Source: Minisyncoccota bacterium (GTDB lineage Bacteria; Patescibacteriota; Minisyncoccia; 2-02-FULL-40-12; GWA2-44-9). Taken from it: 64,000 nucleotides of DNA. The position numbers and the translations under genes are program-made. The stretch lies in the NCBI GenBank assembly GCA_030583765.1, contig CP129474.1:521348-585347 (forward strand), written 5' to 3'. Positions 3,278 through 50,531 of this stretch are shown in pieces. The notes beneath the pieces were generated by a model. That model was not told the origin of the DNA. It did no database searches and was given only the letters and a program-made list of their open reading frames with translations. The stretch's first letter is position 1. The number at the start of each line of letters is the position of its first letter.

Positions 3278-3901
3278 ATGGACGAACAGACACCAGTACA
3301 ACCAACTCCAGAGGTAACGCCAACGGCTCCGGCGGCTTCTGAGCCACAGCGCCACGGTCGTGGTGGTGGTCAGCGTTTTGGAAATCGTCGTCCAGGAGGT
3401 CGCCAAGGTCGTCGTCCTGCGCGTCCAATGGAGAAGCCAGAATATGAGCAAAAGACAATTGATCTTGCTCGTGTTGCTCGTGTCACAAAAGGTGGTAAGC
3501 GCTTCTCTTTCCGTGCAACGGTGGTTATCGGCGACGGCAAATCTCGTGTCGGTATCGGCATGGGCAAGGGCAAGGACGTCGCTCAATCGGTGCAGAAAGC
3601 ATACAATCAGGCGAAGAAGCGCCTGGTGACGATTCTGACCGTTAATGGCACTATTCCTAACACCGTACAGGCAAACTTTCACGGCGCAACGGTTATTCTG
3701 AAGCCTGCGAAAGGTGGTGTGAAAGCGGGTGGCCCTGTGCGTGTTGTTGCAAAGCTCGCTGGTATTACGAGTTTGACCGGCAAGTTGATCGAGCGCACCA
3801 ACAACAAAATCAATATTGCTATGGCGACAATCAAGGCACTTGGCATGTTGCGTGATCGCGCGCGTGACCGATTCGCGCGCGTGGCTCCGCCGTCTGCTTA
3901 A
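3278..3901 (+). CDS. rpsE: 30S ribosomal protein S5 with R/G-rich N-terminal extension
   Basis: 207 aa. The S5 core is ...RVTKGGKRFSFRATVVIGDG...GIGMGKGKDV... An about 50-aa extension precedes it. Confidence 0.9.
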   Translation: MDEQTPVQPTPEVTPTAPAASEPQRHGRGGGQRFGNRRPGGRQGRRPARPMEKPEYEQKTIDLARVARVTKGGKRFSFRATVVIGDGKSRVGIGMGKGKDVAQSVQKAYNQAKKRLVTILTVNGTIPNTVQANFHGATVILKPAKGGVKAGGPVRVVAKLAGITSLTGKLIERTNNKINIAMATIKALGMLRDRARDRFARVAPPSA

Positions 3902-3909
3902 TATTTTCT

Positions 3910-4380
3910 ATGCAACGTCAATCTATCAAATCAGCATCTCGTAGCATCGGTAAGCGCGTTGGCCGTGGTGGCAAGCGTGGAACGACATCCGGTGGTGGCA
4001 CTAAGGGACAAAAGGGTCGCGCTGGCGCAAGTGTGCGCCCGGGTTTCCGCGGCGGTGATAACCGCATCTGGCAATTGTTCCCAAAGCAACGTGGTGCAAC
4101 AAAGAAGCATGGCAGTAAGCGTGTACACCGCAAGCATCGTCGCTATCAGATCATTGCGGGCAAGCCTGCAGTTATTAATGTCGCCGCGCTTAACGCATTC
4201 TCTGCAGGAGATTCGGTGACACTCGCAACATTAAAAGAGCGTCGTCTTGTAAGTGGCGCCGCAAAAGCAGCGAAGATTTTGGGCACTGGTGAGGTAAAGG
4301 TAAAAGTAACAGTTGAAGGCGTTGACGTGTCTGCGTCCGCGCGGGAGAAGATCACTGCCGCCGGCGGGACCGTTGCGTAA
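3910..4380 (+). CDS. rplO: 50S ribosomal protein L15
   Basis: 156 aa with the G/K/R-rich L15 N-terminus. It follows S5 directly, so there is no rpmD/L30 between them. Confidence 0.9.
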   Translation: MQRQSIKSASRSIGKRVGRGGKRGTTSGGGTKGQKGRAGASVRPGFRGGDNRIWQLFPKQRGATKKHGSKRVHRKHRRYQIIAGKPAVINVAALNAFSAGDSVTLATLKERRLVSGAAKAAKILGTGEVKVKVTVEGVDVSASAREKITAAGGTVA

Positions 4381-4390
4381 CCTATTTGTT

Positions 4391-5650
4391 ATGGATCGTA
4401 TTCTGACCGCACTGAAGCGTCCGGAGCTCCGGAGCAAGATACTCTTTATTCTGGGTATCCTTGCATTGTCGCGCGTCCTCTCAACGATCCCTGTGCCTGC
4501 AATCGACGGCAGTCAGTTGAAGGAATTTTTTGCAAACAACCAATTCTTTGGTCTTATTAGCGCGTTCACGGGTGGTGGCCTCTCCAATCTTTCCATTGCC
4601 ATGATCGGCTTGGGTGCATACATCACCGCGTCGATCATTATGCAGTTGATGACTATGATCTTTCCTTCGATGGAGCAGTTGTACAAACATGAAGGAGAGG
4701 CGGGTCGCGCAAAGTTCAATCAATATTCCCGCATGCTTGCAGTGCCACTCGGCGCTATCCAGGCATACGGATTTCTAACGCTCTTGGTGCGTCAGAGTGT
4801 TATCCCTGCGATGTCCGGGTTCGAATGGTTTAATGCCATCACTGTTGTGGTTGCGGGAAGTATGCTTCTTATGTGGCTTGGTGAGCTGATGACCGAAAAG
4901 AATCTCGGCAACGGTGTCTCGCTCTTGATTCTTGCGGGTATCGCTGCGAGCATTCCCACAACGCTCCGACAGGCAATTTTTACCTACACACCCGATCAAC
5001 TCGTCACCTACATTGTCTTTGCAGTAATCTCGCTGGTTGTTATCGCCGGGGTCGTCTTTATCTCAGAGGCGCAGCGTAATATTCCAGTAACCTACGCGCG
5101 TCGCGTGCGCGGTTCCCGTGTATTCGGTGGGGTTTCCACGTATCTTCCTATGCGTGTGAATAACGCTGGTGTTATCCCGATTATCTTCGCACTCTCAATT
5201 CTTCTCTTCCCGGGCACGATCGCCACCTTCTTTGCGGGCTCGAGCATTACATTCCTTGCGAACGCGGCGCAATTCGTGCAGAACATTCTTGCGAGCAACC
5301 TGTGGTACAGCATATTCTACTTTGTGCTCGTGGTGCTCTTCACCTTCTTCTACACGGCAGTGACGTTTGATCCGAAGTCTATCTCTGAAAACATCCAGAA
5401 GCAGGGCGGCTACATTCCCGGCTTGCGTCCAGGTCCTATGACCGCGCAATTCCTCTCGTATCTGGTAAACCGCATCACGTTGGTCGGCGCACTCTTCCTT
5501 GGCGCAGTTGCTGTGCTCCCTAATGTGGTACAGGGCTTCACCGGCTTGACCGCCTTCTCCATTGGTGGAACAACTGTACTTATCGTGGTGTCAGTTGCGC
5601 TTGAGCTCATGAAACAGCTCGACGCTCAAGTCAGCATGTACGAATACTAG
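4391..5650 (+). CDS. secY: Preprotein translocase subunit SecY
   Basis: ATG at 4391 is in frame with the 4313 ORF. The protein is multi-TM, has SecY motifs and sits after L15. Confidence 0.9.
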   Translation: MDRILTALKRPELRSKILFILGILALSRVLSTIPVPAIDGSQLKEFFANNQFFGLISAFTGGGLSNLSIAMIGLGAYITASIIMQLMTMIFPSMEQLYKHEGEAGRAKFNQYSRMLAVPLGAIQAYGFLTLLVRQSVIPAMSGFEWFNAITVVVAGSMLLMWLGELMTEKNLGNGVSLLILAGIAASIPTTLRQAIFTYTPDQLVTYIVFAVISLVVIAGVVFISEAQRNIPVTYARRVRGSRVFGGVSTYLPMRVNNAGVIPIIFALSILLFPGTIATFFAGSSITFLANAAQFVQNILASNLWYSIFYFVLVVLFTFFYTAVTFDPKSISENIQKQGGYIPGLRPGPMTAQFLSYLVNRITLVGALFLGAVAVLPNVVQGFTGLTAFSIGGTTVLIVVSVALELMKQLDAQVSMYEY

Positions 5651-5697
5651 TAAAAACGAAGTAGAAAATTTCTCCCAAGGGCGCCCAAGCGGCGCTC

Positions 5698-5726
5698 TTG
5701 ACTTTTACATAAATAAACTGGATAAT
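5698..5726 (+). promoter_or_regulatory. Cassette 1 promoter: TTGACT-17bp-GATAAT
   Basis: -35 is TTGACT at 5698-5703. The spacer is 17 nt. -10 is GATAAT at 5721-5726. The RBS GAGGAGGTGGGC ends 1 nt before ATG 5750. Confidence 0.6.
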
Positions 5727-5749
5727 GTATGCACCACGAGGAGGTGGGC

Positions 5750-6151
5750 ATGGAGAGCTTTTTCACTGACATGGGCGAGGGCGATCGCGTGGTCGCGCAC
5801 GTCGGGATGCACTCGATCGACATGAGCCCCGAAGGGCGACCGGATGTGGCCTTGTCGTTGCCGATCAACGACATCGGGTACGGGGAGAGCGCTGATGTGT
5901 TGGAGGAGTATATCCTCGCCATCAACGCTGCGCTGAAGCTGGCTCATCGTCGGCTTCGTCTCGAAAGGGTTTTCGACCACCATGGCGAAGAGGTCGTGTT
6001 CGAGGGCGAGGTTTCTTTCGAGGGGCTGGTCGAAGAGGAGGGTCGTCGGGAAGAGGAGAACCCGGAAGATCCTCTGTACGCGAAGAGATTCGTTTTCATC
6101 TTCGAGGCGCTCCCCAACCCGACGTTGCGGGATCGCCACATGATGCCCTAG
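5750..6151 (+). CDS. Hypothetical acidic protein (cassette 1); GC-rich foreign-looking ORF inserted between secY and adk
   Basis: 133 aa. The start is set by the strong RBS: MESFFTDMGEGDRV... The codons are G/C3-saturated, unlike the flanking ribosomal genes. No motif was recognised. Confidence 0.6.
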   Translation: MESFFTDMGEGDRVVAHVGMHSIDMSPEGRPDVALSLPINDIGYGESADVLEEYILAINAALKLAHRRLRLERVFDHHGEEVVFEGEVSFEGLVEEEGRREEENPEDPLYAKRFVFIFEALPNPTLRDRHMMP

Positions 6152-6164
6152 TTGTGGGCTCGCC

Positions 6165-6215
6165 TACGCGCGTCGTTTCCTTCGGGAACCGGCGCGCTGT
6201 TCTTTTTTTATTTGG
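6165..6215 (+). terminator. Intrinsic terminator of cassette 1
   Basis: GC stem flanking a TTCC-TTCG-GGAA hairpin, followed by TGTTCTTTTTTTATTT. Confidence 0.55.
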
Positions 6216-6231
6216 CGTGTACAATACGACT

Positions 6232-6921
6232 ATGGAAAAACAGGCAATCATTCTCATTGGGCCACCGGGCGCAGGGAAGGGAACACAAGCTGAATTACTC
6301 GCCGATGATTTCGGTTTTTTTCACTTTGACACCTCGCAAATCATCGAAGAACGTTTTCGTACTGCGCCCGCCGATGATCCCGTGATCGCGCAAGCGAAGG
6401 CGAACTATGATGCGGGAAAACTCGTAGAGCCAGCACTCGTGGCAAGTTGGGTGATTGATAAAATCCGGGCGCTCGGCATTGGCGGCACCAGCATTGTATT
6501 TAGTGGTTCGTTCCGTACAAACACCGAAGCAGCTGAAGAGCTCCCCGTATTGCAAGAAGTGTATGGCGCCAAAAATGTGCACATTGTGAACATTGAAGTG
6601 GGAGAAGAAGAGTCGGTGAAGCGCAACTCGGGTCGTCGGGTGTGTAAGGTAAACCGTCACCCCATTCCCAACTTCCCGGAATTTGCGAATATCACTGCGT
6701 GCCCCAAAGATGGTAGTGAGATCGTGACGCGGAGTCTCGACGTTCCCGAAACTATTCGCGTGCGCTACGCAACATATCAAGAGCAAACGAAGCCCGTTGT
6801 CGCCTACTTTGAGGGGCAAGGGTATACGGTCATCCGCATCGATGGCGAACAACCCATTCGCAAGGTGCATGAAGATATCATGGAGCGTATTCACGAATTT
6901 TCACATCCGCAAAATATATGA
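6232..6921 (+). CDS. adk: Adenylate kinase
   Basis: MEKQAIILIGPPGAGKGTQ P-loop at the N-terminus. ATG 6232 is in frame within the 6154 ORF. Confidence 0.9.
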   Translation: MEKQAIILIGPPGAGKGTQAELLADDFGFFHFDTSQIIEERFRTAPADDPVIAQAKANYDAGKLVEPALVASWVIDKIRALGIGGTSIVFSGSFRTNTEAAEELPVLQEVYGAKNVHIVNIEVGEEESVKRNSGRRVCKVNRHPIPNFPEFANITACPKDGSEIVTRSLDVPETIRVRYATYQEQTKPVVAYFEGQGYTVIRIDGEQPIRKVHEDIMERIHEFSHPQNI

Positions 6922-7673
6922 TCCTCAAAGAGCAAGATATTCAATTCATGCGTGAAGGTGGAAAAATACTCGCAACAATATTGCGAGAGCTTGCCGCGTC
7001 AGTGAAGCCCGGCATGCCCACGCAGGCATTAGAAGACATCGCCCGTGAGCGTATCGCAGCGCATGGGGTTACTTCATCTTTTTTGGGATATAACGGGTAT
7101 CCCGCAACGCTCTGTGTGAGTGTGAATGAGGAAGCGGTGCATGCAGTGCCGGGAGGATACATCATCCAAGAGGGAGATCTGGTAAAGCTTGATTTCGGCG
7201 TGGTGCACCATGGCCTGCACACTGATAGCGCCGTGACCGTGATTGCCGGACTCACCGACGCACGAAAAAAAGAGTGGCAAGACCGCATCACGCTTTCGCG
7301 CGTAACGCGTGAGGCGCTCTATGCGGGCATTGCGCAAGCGCGTGCCGGAAACACGGTGGGGCACATCGGTGCTGCAATCCAAGCGCATGCAGAAAAAAAT
7401 GGATTCACGGTTTTAAAAGATCTGGGTGGACACGGGATCGGTATGCGGTTGCATGAGGATCCTTTTGTGCCAAACCACGGCTCTGCGGGGGAGGGGGACA
7501 CACTCGTAGCCGGCATGGCGCTTGCGATCGAACCTATTTTAACGACGGGCACACACAAGACAAAAGACGGAACCGATGGCTTTGCATACGTCACCAAAAA
7601 CGGAGCGCTCTCTGCACATTTTGAACATACTATTATCGTCACGGAGGGGGCTCCTATCATCGTAACTGAGTAG
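6918..7673 (+). CDS. map: Methionine aminopeptidase type I
   Basis: 251 aa with a typical MetAP pita-bread fold sequence. It follows adk. Confidence 0.9.
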   Translation: MILKEQDIQFMREGGKILATILRELAASVKPGMPTQALEDIARERIAAHGVTSSFLGYNGYPATLCVSVNEEAVHAVPGGYIIQEGDLVKLDFGVVHHGLHTDSAVTVIAGLTDARKKEWQDRITLSRVTREALYAGIAQARAGNTVGHIGAAIQAHAEKNGFTVLKDLGGHGIGMRLHEDPFVPNHGSAGEGDTLVAGMALAIEPILTTGTHKTKDGTDGFAYVTKNGALSAHFEHTIIVTEGAPIIVTE

Positions 7674-7685
7674 TCCTAAGGGGTA

Positions 7686-7713
7686 TTGACTTTATATACA
7701 AAGGTAGTATAAT
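7686..7713 (+). promoter_or_regulatory. Cassette 2 promoter: TTGACT-16bp-TATAAT
   Basis: -35 at 7686-7691 and -10 at 7708-7713. The RBS CAGGAGGTGGCAC is followed by ATG 7735. Confidence 0.6.
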
Positions 7714-7734
7714 ATACGCTCAGGAGGTGGCACT

Positions 7735-8328
7735 ATGGCCACGATGATGCAGGTCGGTCTGGCGGAGTTCGGCGCGAACGTCCGCCCCATCGCGGAGCGC
7801 ACCTTTCGGTGCCTCGTGCACAAGCGCGAGGTGACGTCTCGGGACGGTTTCGTCCTGAGCATCGGCAACATCCAGAAGGAGCTCGGACTGCCGGCGAAGC
7901 AGCTGCCGGCGATTCACCAGCTCAGCGGGTTCGTCGCCTGCTACGAGTGTCTCCCGAGTGTGAGGTCCTTCTACGGGGTGTCGTTCATGCCCCGCCTCGG
8001 GGACCAGCTCGCGCTGCTCGATCGGCACTTCAAGCTGGCGGCCCAGCAGGTGAGGGCGCGGCCGATCGCTCCGGCGACGGTCGTGCAGGGCACGACGACG
8101 GGGCGCACGGGGACGGCCATGCCCACGCTCCCTGCCGGCTACTTCGAGCGCCGGGGCCAGGCCCACAAGGGCCGGAAGTCCCGGGCCCAGAGGCGCGCGG
8201 AGGCGATGGCCAAGCGCGCGCGGCCGGCGGCCACCGCGGCCGTCGACAAGAAGGCCGCGAAGAAGGCCGCCAAGCAGGCGGCCAAGGCCAAGAACCAGAA
8301 GGGCAACGGTGGCAAGAAGCGCCACTAG
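7735..8328 (+). CDS. Hypothetical protein with histone H1/AlgP-like KAAK-repeat basic tail (cassette 2), likely nucleic-acid binding
   Basis: 197 aa. The N-terminal domain is about 110 aa. The tail reads ...KRARPAATAAVDKKAAKKAAKQAAKAKNQKGNGGKKRH. The sequence is very GC-rich. Overlapping alternative-frame ORFs are GC artefacts. Confidence 0.6.
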   Translation: MATMMQVGLAEFGANVRPIAERTFRCLVHKREVTSRDGFVLSIGNIQKELGLPAKQLPAIHQLSGFVACYECLPSVRSFYGVSFMPRLGDQLALLDRHFKLAAQQVRARPIAPATVVQGTTTGRTGTAMPTLPAGYFERRGQAHKGRKSRAQRRAEAMAKRARPAATAAVDKKAAKKAAKQAAKAKNQKGNGGKKRH

Positions 8329-8338
8329 CGGCCCACTT

Positions 8339-8388
8339 GCGGGGGTGTGTGCATACGGTGCACATACCCCCGCTTTTTCTTTGTTTTT
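8339..8388 (+). terminator. Intrinsic terminator of cassette 2
   Basis: GCGGGGGTGTGTGCA...TGCACATACCCCCGC hairpin followed by TTTTTCTTTGTTTTT. Confidence 0.6.
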
Positions 8389-8406
8389 CCATATAGGCAT
8401 ACACTA

Positions 8407-8436
8407 TTGACCTCTGGAAGGCTCTTCTGATATACT
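8407..8436 (+). promoter_or_regulatory. Putative 23S-5S rRNA operon promoter (TTGACC-18-TATACT) with leader hairpins downstream
   Basis: A near-consensus promoter lies about 290 bp upstream of the 23S 5' end. Leader stem-loops at about 8505-8535 and 8680-8720 look like processing stems. Confidence 0.4.
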
Positions 8437-8722
8437 CCCTAGTACCCAAAGATGATTACCTACCAGACAAGCGAAACCCTCAGCGGCTGACAGACCGTGT
8501 TCGCACGTCTGAAAAAGCCGCCTCAAGGCGGTTTCTGTGTCTCTAGGAGCATCACGCGGGTCGCTTCGCCCTAAGGGGCGAGACGAACCTCGCTCCATGA
8601 TCCTTTGGTATCATGAGCGGGCAGTACGTTGACAACGTGGAACGGGAGCTGAACGAAAGTTCAGCTTTGTATTGTTCGCTTTATAAGAGACCTAGGACCT
8701 CGAGTCCTAGGTGGTACTTTGT

Positions 8723-11815
<3,093 letters not shown>

Positions 11816-11873: not shown

Positions 11874-11985
11874 CTTGGCAGCTATACTGTAGGTGTCCCA
11901 CCTGATCCCATTCCGAACTCAGAAGTGAAATCCTGCAAGGCCCATGATAGTCGGACTCTTCCGGCGAAAGTAGGTAGCTGCCAGA
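11874..11985 (+). rRNA. rrf: 5S ribosomal RNA
   Basis: CTTGGCAGC...CCCACCTGATCCCATTCCGAACTCAGAAGTGAAA...GCTGCCAG; canonical 5S helices. Confidence 0.8.
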
Positions 11986-12024
11986 TTTCTGGCGTTTTTA
12001 TGTTGGTGAGGTATACTTGCAGAT

Positions 12025-27330: not shown

Positions 27331-27936
27331 GTGAAGGTTCTCGTCGTTGCCGGGTACGGGGTGACGCCCGTACGAAACTACGCCATGGAGACAGAGCGCT
27401 ATCTGCTCCGTGCCGCAGAGTTGCTCAGGGAGGCATACGAGGGCGGCGATCCGTTCTCCAATCTCATCCTGTGCGGCGGCATGACCCAGCAGAAGACATC
27501 GCCACATGTCACAGAGGCGTACGCGATGCACGAACGTCTTCGCACGTTGACCATGTGGACTGATGGGAAGCTCGTACCCTCCTTCTGGGACGCTGTGCTG
27601 GTCTCGCACGAAGAGCGTTCATTCACTTCGCTGGAGAACGTACGAAACGCGAGTGAGCGCATTTATCAGCTGTGGGAGCAATTCGATGAGGAGCTCCACA
27701 TCACCGTGCTGTGCGAAGGCATGCGCCTCCTGAAGTGGCAGATCTTGTGTCGCCACTTCATGCCGAAGACGACCACGCCCATCCAGTACGAGATCGTCAA
27801 CTGGGAGCTGATGTCACCCCACAAGGAGTTGATGGCGACCATCTGGGACGCGTGTTCGGTCTCGATTCCCATTATCGGGCCAGCGATGGCGTGGTGGTGG
27901 GGATGGCGTCGCCGTCGGCGCGCCAAGCACATCTAG
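27331..27936 (+). CDS. DUF218 (YdcF/SanA/ElyC)-like protein with W/R-rich C-terminal tail (cassette 3, gene b)
   Basis: 201 aa. VLVVAGYG...R...LILCGGMTQQKTSPHVTEAYAMHERL resembles the DUF218 GG/SEA core. The tail reads AMAWWWGWRRRRRAKHI. Start is GTG. Confidence 0.55.
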   Translation: MKVLVVAGYGVTPVRNYAMETERYLLRAAELLREAYEGGDPFSNLILCGGMTQQKTSPHVTEAYAMHERLRTLTMWTDGKLVPSFWDAVLVSHEERSFTSLENVRNASERIYQLWEQFDEELHITVLCEGMRLLKWQILCRHFMPKTTTPIQYEIVNWELMSPHKELMATIWDACSVSIPIIGPAMAWWWGWRRRRRAKHI

Positions 27937-29241: not shown

Positions 29242-29835
29242 ATGAAGTATGACGAGATGACGTGGGGCACGATGGAGGCCGTGGTCAACAAGCTTGGCGG
29301 CATGGATGGCGTTCAGCGCTTCCTGCGCGGCGCGCTCAAGGTCGTCGAGGCGGAGGCCAATGCCGCCTTCTCGACGTTCCAGAAGATCACGCTCAGCGTG
29401 TACGACAACGTCGCGACGCTTCGCAAGGCGATCGCGGACAGCGGCAACAACATCAGCGACTACGGGGAAGACCTGCTCGCCAAGATGTCGCTGGTGAAGG
29501 AGCCCGTCGAGCTCGAGCTGGTGTGCGTGTCGGTCAAGGATCTGGGCCTGAAGTCCGGAGCCACGATCAAGCAGATCTACGATCGCGCTCGCAAGCTTGG
29601 CTTGGACCTCTGCCCGGCCCAGGTCGGACCCGAGCTCCGCCTGGCCTACCAGGATCAGCCCATCGGCGAGTGGCTGCTGGTGGCGATGGAGCAGATCACG
29701 GATCGCAACGGTCACCCGAGCGTGTTCATCGTCGGGTGTGACGTCCACGGCGTCCGCTGGTTGGACGGCGATTACGCCTACCCGAGCAACACCTGGAGCG
29801 GCCTCAGCCGTTGGGTGTTCGTCCGTCGCGCGTAA
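29242..29835 (+). CDS. Hypothetical protein (cassette 4)
   Basis: 197 aa beginning MKYDEMTWGTMEAVVNKLGG... It is GC-rich with G/C3 codons. No motif was recognised. Confidence 0.55.
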   Translation: MKYDEMTWGTMEAVVNKLGGMDGVQRFLRGALKVVEAEANAAFSTFQKITLSVYDNVATLRKAIADSGNNISDYGEDLLAKMSLVKEPVELELVCVSVKDLGLKSGATIKQIYDRARKLGLDLCPAQVGPELRLAYQDQPIGEWLLVAMEQITDRNGHPSVFIVGCDVHGVRWLDGDYAYPSNTWSGLSRWVFVRRA

Positions 29836-31233: not shown

Positions 31234-32249
31234 AGCCCCATGGCGGTGCGCACTTTACGCATCGTTTCTTCTGCAATGACTCGGGCTTTTTCTTCGGATG
31301 CTTCCAATATAGCCGTTACCTGTGCGGGATCTGCGGTGAGTTCGGCGTGCTTTTGCTGAAATGGCGCAAGTGCCGTGATGATCGCCTCTGCGAGATCGTG
31401 TTTGAAATCCGCGTAGCCACTGGACGCATAGCGAGCTTCGAGCTCTGGGATCGGTGTGCCGCTCACAACACTGAAAATAGTGAGTAAGTTAGCGATGGCT
31501 GGCCGTTCGGTGGGTTGGTAGGTAATGCCGGTGCCTGAATCAGTGACGGCACGCTTTATCTTTGCGCGAATGGTGTCTGGTGCGTCAGTGAGGGCAATGC
31601 CATCGTCGCCCGTCTTTGACATCTTTTTCGTAGGATCTTGCAGAGACATGATGCGAGCGCCCTGCTCTTCTGCCATGTGCGCTTTTACGGTGGTAAATGT
31701 TTCGCCACCTGCCCGGCCAGGGAATAAATGGTTGAACTTACGTGCTATTTCATTGGTGACATCAATGTGCACGAGCTGATCTTCGCCCACTGGAACGAGG
31801 GTTGTGTTGTAAAGCAGAATGTCTGCCGCCATGAGTACGGGATAGGAAAGAATGGCGAGGTTGTTGCCATAGCTTCCTGCGCGAGGAGAAAGTGATGCTT
31901 CGATCTGCTCACCCTTCTCTCGGTAGTTGGGGAGGCGGTCTAGCCAACTGATGGGCGTAATGGAAGATAAGAGCCACATGAGCTCGGCATGCTGGGGAAC
32001 GCGAGACTGGCGGATGATAAGCGCACGCGAAGGATCTACGCCCGCGGCAATGTAGTTAATGGCCGCATCGCGCACGCGCTCTGGCATGTCGGCTGGTTCG
32101 TAGGGCGTAGTGATGCCGTGAAGGTCTACGACGGCGTACACTGCTTGTTCTGCGTCGCGCTGAAGGGCAACCCACTGTTTGAGTGCGCCCACATAGTTGC
32201 CAAGATGGAGCTTGCCACTGGGGCGCATGCCAGAAAAAACTCGTTGCAT
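31230..32249 (-). CDS. trpS: Tryptophan--tRNA ligase
   Basis: 339 aa with a HIGH-type region (..GKLHLGNYVGAL..) and KMSKT. Confidence 0.9.
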   Translation of the reverse strand: MQRVFSGMRPSGKLHLGNYVGALKQWVALQRDAEQAVYAVVDLHGITTPYEPADMPERVRDAAINYIAAGVDPSRALIIRQSRVPQHAELMWLLSSITPISWLDRLPNYREKGEQIEASLSPRAGSYGNNLAILSYPVLMAADILLYNTTLVPVGEDQLVHIDVTNEIARKFNHLFPGRAGGETFTTVKAHMAEEQGARIMSLQDPTKKMSKTGDDGIALTDAPDTIRAKIKRAVTDSGTGITYQPTERPAIANLLTIFSVVSGTPIPELEARYASSGYADFKHDLAEAIITALAPFQQKHAELTADPAQVTAILEASEEKARVIAEETMRKVRTAMGL

Positions 32250-32298
32250 AGTGCTTCAAGAATAGAGGAATTAAGGTCTTTTCGCAATACGGAGAATA

Positions 32299-32327
32299 TT
32301 GACCGTTGTGATATTTATTGGTATAAC
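32299..32327 (+). promoter_or_regulatory. Cassette 6 promoter: TTGACC-17bp-TATAAC
   Basis: -35 at 32299-304 and -10 at 32322-27. RBS AAGGAGG is at 32336-42 and the ATG at 32349. Confidence 0.55.
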
Positions 32328-32348
32328 TATGCACGAAGGAGGCGCACC

Positions 32349-32786
32349 ATGAGATCTTGTTTGACATTGGCACACGAGCCGTACGAGCCCTTGCGCATCG
32401 CGCGCGACGAGCTCGTCGTCGTTTCGGAAACGGATCCGGGGAGCATCCCCGCGTTCGTGGATCGGTTTCGGGACGTTTCTGCTCCGATTCCGATCGAGTG
32501 CGTGGACCACCTTCGCAAGCTGGTGACAGCGATCATCCAGAAGATGGAGTTCGCGTCTGCGAACGGGTGGCCGTCACGTAGGCCGATGTACTTCCATGTC
32601 TGTCGCCTGAACGACCTGTCAGCGAAGGAGTGCGAGCTCTGGGAGGACGCCGCGCAGCTCATCTACAAGGAGTTGCACGCTTGCGGCTGGACGCAGGCCA
32701 TCGTGGACGAGGTGGAGTGGCAGAACGTGGAGGACGAGGGGACGGAGCGTTACGAGCGCTCGCTCGTCATCAACCTGTTCATGTAG
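32349..32786 (+). CDS. Hypothetical protein (cassette 6)
   Basis: 146 aa beginning MRSCLTLAHEPYEPLRIARDELVVV... It is GC-rich. The RBS-placed ATG is in frame inside the 31989 ORF. No motif was recognised. Confidence 0.55.
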   Translation: MRSCLTLAHEPYEPLRIARDELVVVSETDPGSIPAFVDRFRDVSAPIPIECVDHLRKLVTAIIQKMEFASANGWPSRRPMYFHVCRLNDLSAKECELWEDAAQLIYKELHACGWTQAIVDEVEWQNVEDEGTERYERSLVINLFM

Positions 32787-48974: not shown

Positions 48975-49244
48975 CTCAATGGTAGAGCGTCTCGCTGTGA
49001 GATAAACGCAGCTTTGCGTCGAAAGGCGCACTGAAACTTTCTGGGATAACGGTGAAGCCCCTTCGTTTTTTTACGAGAGGTAATACCGTGGGAACCCCGC
49101 CTTGGCGGGGGCGCCGTAGAGACTAGATACCAGAACGCCTGTGTCGCATGCGCGATATGGCGAAGATATAGTCCACGCCGGTATGAAAATACCGGAATTC
49201 GTGTAACGAGAGGGTTGTAGGTTCGAGTCCTACCCGCGGAGCCA
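48965..49244 (+). tRNA. tRNA-Asn (anticodon GUU) interrupted by a 205-nt group I intron (exons 48965-48998 and 49204-49244)
   Basis: Exon 1 is TCCGCGG-TA-GCTC-AATGGTA-GAGC-G-TCTCG-CTGT. Exon 2 is TAA-CGAGA-GGGTT-GTAGG-TTCGAGT-CCTAC-CCGCGGA-G-CCA. The spliced loop is CTGTTAA, giving anticodon GUU. Confidence 0.7.
48999..49203 (+). ncRNA. Group I self-splicing intron within tRNA-Asn anticodon loop
   Basis: P1 forms between exon GCUGU and intron GCAGC (49008-12), with a U.G pair at the splice site. The intron ends in G. P7 elements AGACTAG (about 49118-24) and AAGATATAGTCC (49163-74) are conserved. Confidence 0.7.
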
Positions 49245-49248
49245 AATC

Positions 49249-49283
49249 AAAACACCGCATCTTCTGCGGTGTTTTGATTTAAT
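49249..49283 (+). terminator. Intrinsic terminator after tRNA-Asn
   Basis: AAAACACCGCA-TCTTC-TGCGGTGTTTT followed by GATTTAAT. Confidence 0.5.
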
Positions 49284-49341
49284 CCCCTGGTGGACGTTAG
49301 AACTTAAAAATGATTAAATTGAATAAATAGTAAGTAGTCTC

Positions 49342-50082
49342 ATGGCGTACAATATGAGTTTAGAGCAAATACCAAATCAAGCACCTAAGCAGGAAATAAA
49401 AGTTCAACCTAAAATAGAAGTTGAACCAAATTTTGATGGTTTCGTTCCAGATGAATTTAAAAACGACCCCCTAAAATATTTTGAAGAGAAGGGCACTAAC
49501 ATAAAGCCTGGAGAAACAAAATATGATGAAACTGGTCGGGTCCGCGAAGATCCAACCGCTGTAAAAGATTTACCAGTTTGGAAGAATAAAGAAGGAGTTG
49601 AGCTACATACAGTTGGAAAAAGAGTGAACAAAGAGAAGGGCAAGATTGGTGAGATTAGGGATCCGTTTTATGAATATAAAGTTATGGAAATTATTCAAGA
49701 ATTAGGTTTGCCATGTCCTAGGCCAGTTGCAAGGGTAGAACAAGGAGGCAATAACCTTATCGTGATGGAACGAGTTCATGGTATCCGTTGGCCAGATAAA
49801 GATAGTCTACATCTTAATGAGAAAGGATATTCTGCTGAAGATATTCAGGGCTTGATCAGCCAGGCAGAGGTCATGGTAAGGGAATTGCATAGAAAATTCG
49901 AAGACGCTGGTATTTCAAGAGATTGGAAATTAAAAGATATGCTTTTTGATATTGACATAGAAAATAAGAAAATTAATTCCATTGTTCCTACAGATTGGGA
50001 AAGAACCACAATAAACCAAGAAAAATTGGCACAGGCCAGAGCATTGAAGCGACAAACTAAATTAGATACCGAAGGACCCTAA
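49342..50082 (+). CDS. Hypothetical protein in AT-rich islet, possible atypical (RIO/Kdo-like) kinase fold
   Basis: 246 aa, K/E-rich. LIVMERVHG...RDWKLKDMLFDID loosely resembles the hinge and catalytic-loop regions of small atypical kinases. This is weak. Confidence 0.35.
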   Translation: MAYNMSLEQIPNQAPKQEIKVQPKIEVEPNFDGFVPDEFKNDPLKYFEEKGTNIKPGETKYDETGRVREDPTAVKDLPVWKNKEGVELHTVGKRVNKEKGKIGEIRDPFYEYKVMEIIQELGLPCPRPVARVEQGGNNLIVMERVHGIRWPDKDSLHLNEKGYSAEDIQGLISQAEVMVRELHRKFEDAGISRDWKLKDMLFDIDIENKKINSIVPTDWERTTINQEKLAQARALKRQTKLDTEGP

Positions 50083-50186
50083 ATCCGGGACATGGATATA
50101 TCCATTATGCTTTTGCAAAATAGTTCTAACGTTGTTCACGGTTCGGAGCAAGGAATAGAAAAATAAGCTATTATAAACGATAGCCT

Positions 50187-50531
50187 ATGCTGTCCCCCAG
50201 AATCCAATTCGTTGTTCGATTTATTATCGCTGGGTTTTTGTTTCTTGCTATAACAACTTCACTGCTAGGGTCTACCGGTGTGCGAGGGTTTCCAAAGTAT
50301 CCAGACTCTCTGTTAAGAACTGGCGTCGATTCACCATTTGCCTGGAAGCGCACGGTAGCTACGGTGATTCTGCCAATCAAAATTGTTCTTATAGGCCCGC
50401 TCTCTCTGGAGTCTGTCGATCTTTTAAAAGATGATCCGCCACCTCCCTTTATTGCGATATATCTTATCTGCTACTGGACGATTCTTGCCTCAGGCATTTA
50501 TGCTGTGTCTCATAGCATAAAACAGAGCTAG
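50187..50531 (+). CDS. Hypothetical membrane protein in AT-rich islet
   Basis: 114 aa with 3 hydrophobic segments. Confidence 0.35.
   Translation: MLSPRIQFVVRFIIAGFLFLAITTSLLGSTGVRGFPKYPDSLLRTGVDSPFAWKRTVATVILPIKIVLIGPLSLESVDLLKDDPPPPFIAIYLICYWTILASGIYAVSHSIKQS

Follow-up and report, generated by a model that had tools for sequence, protein, structure and literature searches.

In the window, by which we mean the whole 64-kb stretch of DNA analysed here, part of a 615-kb contig in the MAG of a 'Candidatus Paceibacterota bacterium' (CPR; Paceibacterota is Minisyncoccota in current taxonomy), a ribosomal-protein string that includes S5 and L15 runs on into secY, a gene of a family that we call A, adk and map. 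The secY-adk-map order is among the most conserved gene strings of bacteria, and the initial annotation had pointed to a unit of promoter, ribosome-binding site, ORF and terminator that splits the secY-adk adjacency. All of these parts are indeed found between the two genes, where the spacer holds a single complete unit (5698-6209) made up of promoter, Shine-Dalgarno (SD) sequence, ORF and terminator. The features are as follows; promoter calls are consensus predictions and terminator calls are fold predictions.

Ending at 5650: secY (Pfam SecY, E = 2.6e-96).
5676-5700, forward strand: intrinsic terminator hairpin of secY (terminator scan; -18.1 kcal/mol, z = -4.1).
5698-5726, forward strand: sigma-70-type promoter-like site, TTGACT (5698-5703), 17-nt spacer, GATAAT (5721-5726), 10 of 12 consensus matches.
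5739-5746, forward strand: Shine-Dalgarno sequence AGGAGGTG, 3 nt before the ATG at 5750.
5750-6151, forward strand: family-A gene, ORF of 133 aa plus stop (NCBI WKZ27055.1, QY311_02895, hypothetical protein, entered with a 140-aa start).
6168-6209, forward strand: cassette terminator (-21.1 kcal/mol, z = -3.6); its hairpin (6168-6197) has a UUCG loop on a GC-rich stem of 13 bp, in which a single position is mismatched, and is followed by a T-run.
6220-6234, forward strand: TACAAT (6220-6225), 6 nt before the ATG of adk (6232), read from the sequence; the same arrangement occurs in the related loci L001, L004 and L007.
6232-6921: adk, from its ATG (Pfam ADK).
6918-7673: map.

The family-A gene lies within the S10-spc block, 2.5 kb upstream of the 23S and 5S rRNA genes. 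Inspection of the ORFs of the locus revealed no toxin, defence or mobile-element genes near it, an Rfam search of 5500-8750 at a permissive threshold returned no RNA family, and we found no further copy of family A, nor any copy of the second cassette family described below (B), within the 64-kb window. A literature search turned up nothing on genes inserted at the secY-adk junction of CPR bacteria.

The -35 element of the cassette promoter is overlapped by the T-run and the 3' arm of the secY hairpin. The hairpin itself, although its sequence differs among the four genomes compared, keeps 10 of 10 stem pairs, three of them with compensatory changes. A promoter scan gave 8 sites in 4 kb compared with 2.0±1.5 in shuffled sequence; the three best sites lie directly before the family-A ORF, before a second cassette and before the 23S rRNA gene, and the extended pattern TTGACTTTT-N14-18-TAAT is expected only 0.01 times per window. 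In all genomes the 5' module of a unit consists of a hairpin, TTGACTT(T/C), a 17-nt spacer, (G/T)ATAAT or TTTAAT, CCACGAGGAGGTGG and a start codon, and the SD sequence of the window copy forms part of CCACGAGGAGGTGG, which is conserved in all family-A cassettes. The 3' module is the terminator ACGCGCGTCG(C/T)TTCCTTCGGG(G/A)ACCGGCGCGCTGTT followed by T's. This terminator module (about 44-47 nt, repeat family D2) occurs once in the window and stands 3' of every family-A copy in the relatives at 85-98% identity; between the window and L002 it is 95% identical over 44 nt (blastn), while the genomes overall are only about 80% identical. Downstream, adk has no SD site but carries a conserved GTGTACAAT ending 6 nt 5' of its ATG in all four genomes, an arrangement that possibly represents a promoter of its own with a leaderless mRNA start. 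In the output of several gene callers adk starts further upstream, at GTG 6154 (255 aa), and spans the cassette terminator.

Several lines of evidence establish that the ORF is a real protein-coding gene, under purifying selection that is weaker than on its neighbours. For the window copy, dN/dS is 0.16 when compared with L001 and 0.29-0.46 when compared with the L004 paralogs, with an overall range of 0.15-0.46; in these genome pairs secY and adk have values of 0.007-0.045, and dN of the family-A gene is 10-30 times as high as theirs. Indels among the seven known family-A members are in whole codons, and the spacing from SD to start codon is constant. As dN/dS is below 1 everywhere, these figures do not amount to diversifying selection, and relaxed constraint would give the same numbers. 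With respect to the start, the 140-aa form in NCBI begins at an ATG (5729) that is missing in the relatives and lies only 3 nt past the -10 hexamer, and for both reasons we prefer the 133-aa start, in agreement with the length given in the initial annotation. An exact look-up of the 140-aa translation gave no match, whereas the exact 133-aa protein, the form on record, recurs in five additional sequencing runs, again between secY and adk. An antisense ORF of 144 aa (5705-6139), whose codon triplets coincide with those of the sense ORF, probably stays open as a by-product, because a GC3-rich gene has few TTA, CTA and TCA codons.

The initial annotation quoted the peptide FEGEVSFEGLVEEEGRREEENPEDPLY, contained in the 133-aa ORF, and described a highly acidic protein whose gene is GC3-saturated, unlike its flanks. 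The window copy is indeed acidic (pI 4.61, net charge -16, 29 Asp plus Glu, 13 Lys plus Arg). GC3 is clearly raised, at 0.77 compared with 0.48-0.61 in the flanking genes and 2.6 sd above the window mean of 0.54 (sd 0.09, 59 ORFs), but "saturated" overstates this value.

Family A is not confined to this genome, and the earlier description of the protein as an orphan was not upheld. Searching 1.84e9 representatives with a family profile (hmmsearch) recovered four true clusters (P0002, P0004, P0005 and P0007) and one spurious protein with TPR repeats (P0006, 1279 aa, E = 2e-4), which we rejected as a chance match of its repeated 'LTPEGHPDR' motif. A word-indexed search of 5.8e9 clusters gave three matches, and a scan of metagenome loci with a four-sequence alignment re-found only the Hainich contig. 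The content of the secY-adk spacer in the window and its relatives is as follows.

Window: A.
L001, about 97% nucleotide identity to the window: an unrelated gene for a basic 95-aa protein (B), then A (95% identical).
L002-L004, from MAG H51 of Hainich groundwater, with a nucleotide identity of about 80%: A1-A2-A3, three copies in tandem.
L007, MAG H41: a diverged copy (Ad), a copy of a long A3 type (A3L) and a gene for a basic 98-aa protein (B).
L008, a distant Parcubacteria MAG that is the next nearest species representative (Adk 41% identical): no cassette, secY and adk 77 nt apart.

The relatives in all three lineages thus have orthologs at the same site, the very finding that the initial annotation had named as its refutation. 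The suggested lineage-specific interruption of the gene string was borne out by comparison with L008, in which secY adjoins adk with nothing between them. Every known family-A member is chromosomal and lies between secY and adk, and neither the two large searches nor the metagenome scan yielded a homolog outside this small Paceibacterota clade; the family is restricted to this clade and to this one site. Within the clade, the number of copies per locus (1-3, with 24-63% identity) and the content of the spacer differ from one species to another and, at the level of strains, inside a single species. Between the window and L007, the first-position promoter and SD modules are identical at 52 of 55 positions and Adk is 90% identical, while the first-position ORFs share only 38% of their residues. 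The evolutionary inferences drawn from these comparisons are based on only four lineages.

The basic proteins form a second kind of cassette, with a promoter-like site and a terminator of its own. It is found in L001 (7548-7928, 95 aa, pI 10.9) and in L007 (4590-4934, 98 aa, pI 11.2), while the window and L002-L004 lack it. The two proteins have only a C-terminal RYWKR motif in common (pairwise E = 0.005), and because their likeness is confined to this motif we use the name "family B" tentatively; the word-indexed search for homologs of the B cassette found only the cassette itself. We also considered that acidic A and basic B might constitute a toxin-antitoxin pair, and rejected this, as the two co-occur inconsistently and each has its own promoter and terminator.

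Alleles of the family-A gene are recombination mosaics. Between the window and L001 all 25 nucleotide differences lie in the half that encodes the N-terminal part of the protein and none in the other, and dS in this half (0.38) exceeds that of the flanking genes (0.07-0.15). Moreover, the B unit of L001 is inserted exactly at the junction of hairpin and -35 element and brings a hairpin-TTGACTTTT module of its own. Taken together, the repeats and the mosaic alleles are consistent with the repeated modules having been sites of tandem duplication, unequal crossing-over and gene conversion. The array would probably grow, shrink and shuffle through homologous recombination between the repeated terminator and promoter modules.

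According to the predictions, the family-A product is cytoplasmic and forms a compact alpha/beta domain without known relatives in sequence or fold. AlphaFold2 models it with a pLDDT of 85 and a pTM of 0.80, from an alignment of only seven sequences, as an N-terminal β-hairpin followed by a β-α-β-β-α-β core (β13-18, β22-27, β35-38, α44-65, β67-76, a short bridge, α90-103, β111-120), with low confidence only in the last seven residues. Disorder is not what the model indicates: the acidic run EGLVEEEGRREEE is a confidently predicted helix. Leu, Phe and Gly make up most of the columns that are invariant throughout the seven members, and the few polar ones are E28, E46, N59 and S89; no set of His, Cys, Asp or Lys is conserved across the seven, and the polar invariants do not form a recognizable catalytic set. 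Conservation is unevenly distributed along the A-type copies, with a well-conserved N-terminal half (dN/dS 0.18-0.33) and a highly variable helix 2 and following loop that contain indels (dN/dS 0.40-0.87); between A-type paralogs the dN/dS of the C-terminal half reaches 0.64-0.87. Net charge is also variable, from -10 to -16 in A-type copies to a near-neutral -2 to -5 in the A3 type, and acidity therefore does not appear to be a trait of the family as a whole.

Database comparison offered no direct clue to function. None of the seven members matched a family in Pfam, NCBIfam, PHROG or PADLOC at E<=0.01, the best hit of the family profile among PDB sequences had an E-value of 0.41, Foldseek gave no match at E<=1e-3 on the PDB and viral models, and IMG/VR, the INPHARED phages and the PLSDB plasmids contained no relatives. 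Family A is an undescribed protein family without a fold match, although it is already deposited in GenBank as a hypothetical protein, as are many products of CPR genomes, and what sets it apart is its site inside the secY-adk-map string, its insulated modular units and its variation between close relatives.

We give about even weight to the reading that the unit 5698-6209 is an autonomous transcription unit of a small, recombining accessory array and that its product is a strongly expressed, non-enzymatic binding protein. The descriptive part of this reading is well supported, while the mechanism is put forward tentatively and is the less probable part. It holds that the protein would be made abundantly, would not act as a catalyst, and would bind a partner as an inhibitor, an immunity-type protein or an adaptor. 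The conserved N-terminal sheet and helix 1 would then serve as the scaffold, and the hypervariable helix 2 with the following loop, which includes the acidic stretch in the window copy, might provide the specificity surface. We infer the binding role from the absence of a catalytic motif, the small size of the protein and the pattern of its variation.

It is instructive to compare the array with systems that it partly resembles. Orphan immunity arrays of polymorphic toxin systems (CDI, Rhs, T6SS) encode small, cytoplasmic and often acidic products and consist of diverged, recombining tandem paralogs whose number varies between strains. Family A shares the small cytoplasmic proteins and the tandem, diverged and strain-variable paralogs, but differs in having no toxin gene, no known Imm- or SUKH-type domain and no mobile-element context, in that each copy has its own promoter and terminator, and in its site between two essential genes of the ribosomal super-operon. 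Hot spots of accessory genes in bacterial pan-genomes likewise combine fixed core flanks with variable content, as when B is present in L001 and absent from the window at 97% identity; here, however, the scale is 0.5-1.6 kb, integrase and tRNA landmarks are missing, the surrounding string is highly conserved and only two clade-specific families of small proteins are involved. Small ferredoxin-like (beta-alpha-beta-beta-alpha-beta) domains are also among the closest known systems.

The resemblance to integron cassette arrays deserves separate mention, as both consist of short single-ORF units in a row, with conserved hairpin ends and a content that differs between close relatives. There is, however, no adjacent IntI-type integrase or attI, as secY and adk border the array on either side in all loci, and the hairpin, whose GC-rich stem is of the ordinary kind and carries a UUCG loop and a T-run, resembles an intrinsic terminator. 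Integron cassettes are as a rule promoterless ORFs ending in an attC site, whereas every unit of this array has its own promoter-like site and SD sequence, and the units are mostly paralogs of one family, which fits tandem duplication. A bolder proposal, which we consider quite doubtful, is that the secY-adk spacer functions as an integrase-free expression platform, a miniature integron-like cassette system within the ribosomal super-operon, in which unrelated small ORFs (acidic A, basic B) would be duplicated, swapped and lost by homologous recombination at insulated terminator-promoter-SD modules; the raised GC3 that the cassette genes all share could then have arisen from frequent gene conversion.

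Among the alternatives to the binding-protein reading, a clade-specific housekeeping factor for translation or secretion has the most to recommend it, yet we regard it as fairly unlikely. Such a factor, itself acidic, might chaperone or help to assemble a basic protein that belongs to the ribosome or associates with it, for instance the cassette-2 protein described below, and its placement in the super-operon would then serve co-expression. Its location in the S10-spc block shortly upstream of the rRNA genes, a near-consensus promoter and a perfect SD sequence such as abundant proteins have, its presence in every known member of the clade, the recurrence of the exact protein in the five further sequencing runs and the conserved basic 197-aa protein that follows map, with similar expression signals, in all these genomes would all suit this role. 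A housekeeping protein would, however, hardly be expected to vary from one to three copies, to diverge to 38% identity while Adk stays at 90% (window and L007) or to accumulate nonsynonymous changes 10-30 times faster than secY and adk; in addition, the A3 subfamily is not acidic, and the terminators separate the unit from the operon instead of coupling the two. An immunity-type or anti-defence array is a special case of the binding-protein reading, in which each diverged paralog would neutralize a different toxin or defence effector encountered by a probably host-dependent CPR bacterium. Small, cytoplasmic and mostly acidic proteins in diverged tandem copies, cassette content that is polymorphic between strains at 97% nucleotide identity, mosaic alleles and one hypervariable half of the protein are what such an array should display, but no toxin gene lies adjacent, Pfam, PADLOC and PHROG give no match, integrases and mobile elements are missing, dN/dS stays below 1, and a site between two essential genes is untypical of such islands. 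We therefore consider this specific form improbable.

The initial annotation had suggested, as a speculation, an Ocr-like DNA mimic or an antitoxin, and the follow-up supports neither. The window copy resembles Ocr and ArdA in its small size and strong negative charge, a charge that extends to the other A-type paralogs, and strong expression signals would fit a DNA-mimic anti-restriction protein or antitoxin; nevertheless, neither homology nor a fold match to any such protein was found, a compact alpha/beta sandwich is predicted, the gene lies on the chromosome, collections of phages, plasmids and viruses contain no relatives, and the A3 subfamily is near neutral. A type II antitoxin would moreover be co-transcribed with a toxin, while the family-A gene is monocistronic with its own terminator, has secY, adk or paralogs for neighbours and gives no antitoxin-domain match in Pfam, NCBIfam or PADLOC, so that a function of either kind appears very improbable. 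Scarcely credible, finally, is the idea that the ORF is non-functional and merely occupies a GC-rich regulatory spacer that ends secY transcription and restarts it for adk-map. The better conservation of the terminator and promoter modules than of the ORF, and the existence of an antisense ORF of similar length, could be cited in its favour, but it leaves unexplained a sense-frame dN/dS well below 1, a frame kept through whole-codon indels in seven diverged copies, a strong SD sequence at constant spacing from the start codon in every copy and a confidently modelled fold, and a regulatory spacer would need neither 400 nt nor tandem copies.

CPR bacteria have tiny genomes with many genes of no known function, and the locus is an unusually clean example of the latter: a confidently folding family with strong expression signals, fast evolution and a changing copy number inside a conserved string. 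If its members prove to be immunity or anti-defence binders, or accessories of the ribosome or of secretion, they would give insight into conflict, or into the tailoring of core machinery, in probably host-dependent cells. If the modular flanks really mediate exchange, they would represent a simple, integrase-free route to gene arrays. At present the locus should be regarded as that of a well-characterized hypothetical protein and not as the discovery of a mechanism.

The window contains a second cassette of the same design after map (7686-8373, forward strand), with TTGACTTT-16-TATAAT, AGGAGGTGG, an ORF of 197 aa (7735-8328) and a very strong terminator at 8339-8373 (-32 kcal/mol). Its product (WKZ27058.1, hypothetical) has a pI of 11.3 and a GC3 of 0.94, local GC reaches 76%, and gene callers often report the antisense strand of this region instead. 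Homologs occur in the same clade only, with 60-76% identity and always after map. A C26-x2-H29 ... C69-x2-C72 pattern and a basic tail of AAKKAAK type are invariant, and the four residues of the pattern may form a Zn site; the AlphaFold2 model of this protein is poor (pLDDT 48).

Directly after map and this cassette, the window continues with a promoter-like site (8407-8436), a 23S rRNA gene (8718-11809, forward strand; 3092 nt compared with a 2925-position model) and a 5S rRNA gene (11874-11986, forward strand), and the infA-rpmJ-rpsM string that usually comes after map does not follow here. The 23S region is 97.7% identical to that of L002, compared with about 80% in the protein-coding flanks, and the 64-kb window contains no 16S rRNA gene.

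Further ORFs with high GC3 relative to the window mean lie on the forward strand at 29242-29835 (0.89), 27331-27936 (0.79) and 31989-32786 (0.74). None of the three has similarity to the cassette-2 protein, and high GC3 may mark lineage-specific genes of this genome generally. In the ribosomal-protein string (3278-4380), rpsE (S5) is directly followed by rplO (L15), with rpmD (L30) absent between them, which is a known CPR pattern, and the N-terminus of S5 is extended by about 50 aa rich in Pro, Arg and Gly. Elsewhere in the window, a patch of low GC content at 49200-50400 (0.38-0.43 compared with 0.52 for the window), which covers an ORF of 246 aa (49342-50082), may be foreign DNA.
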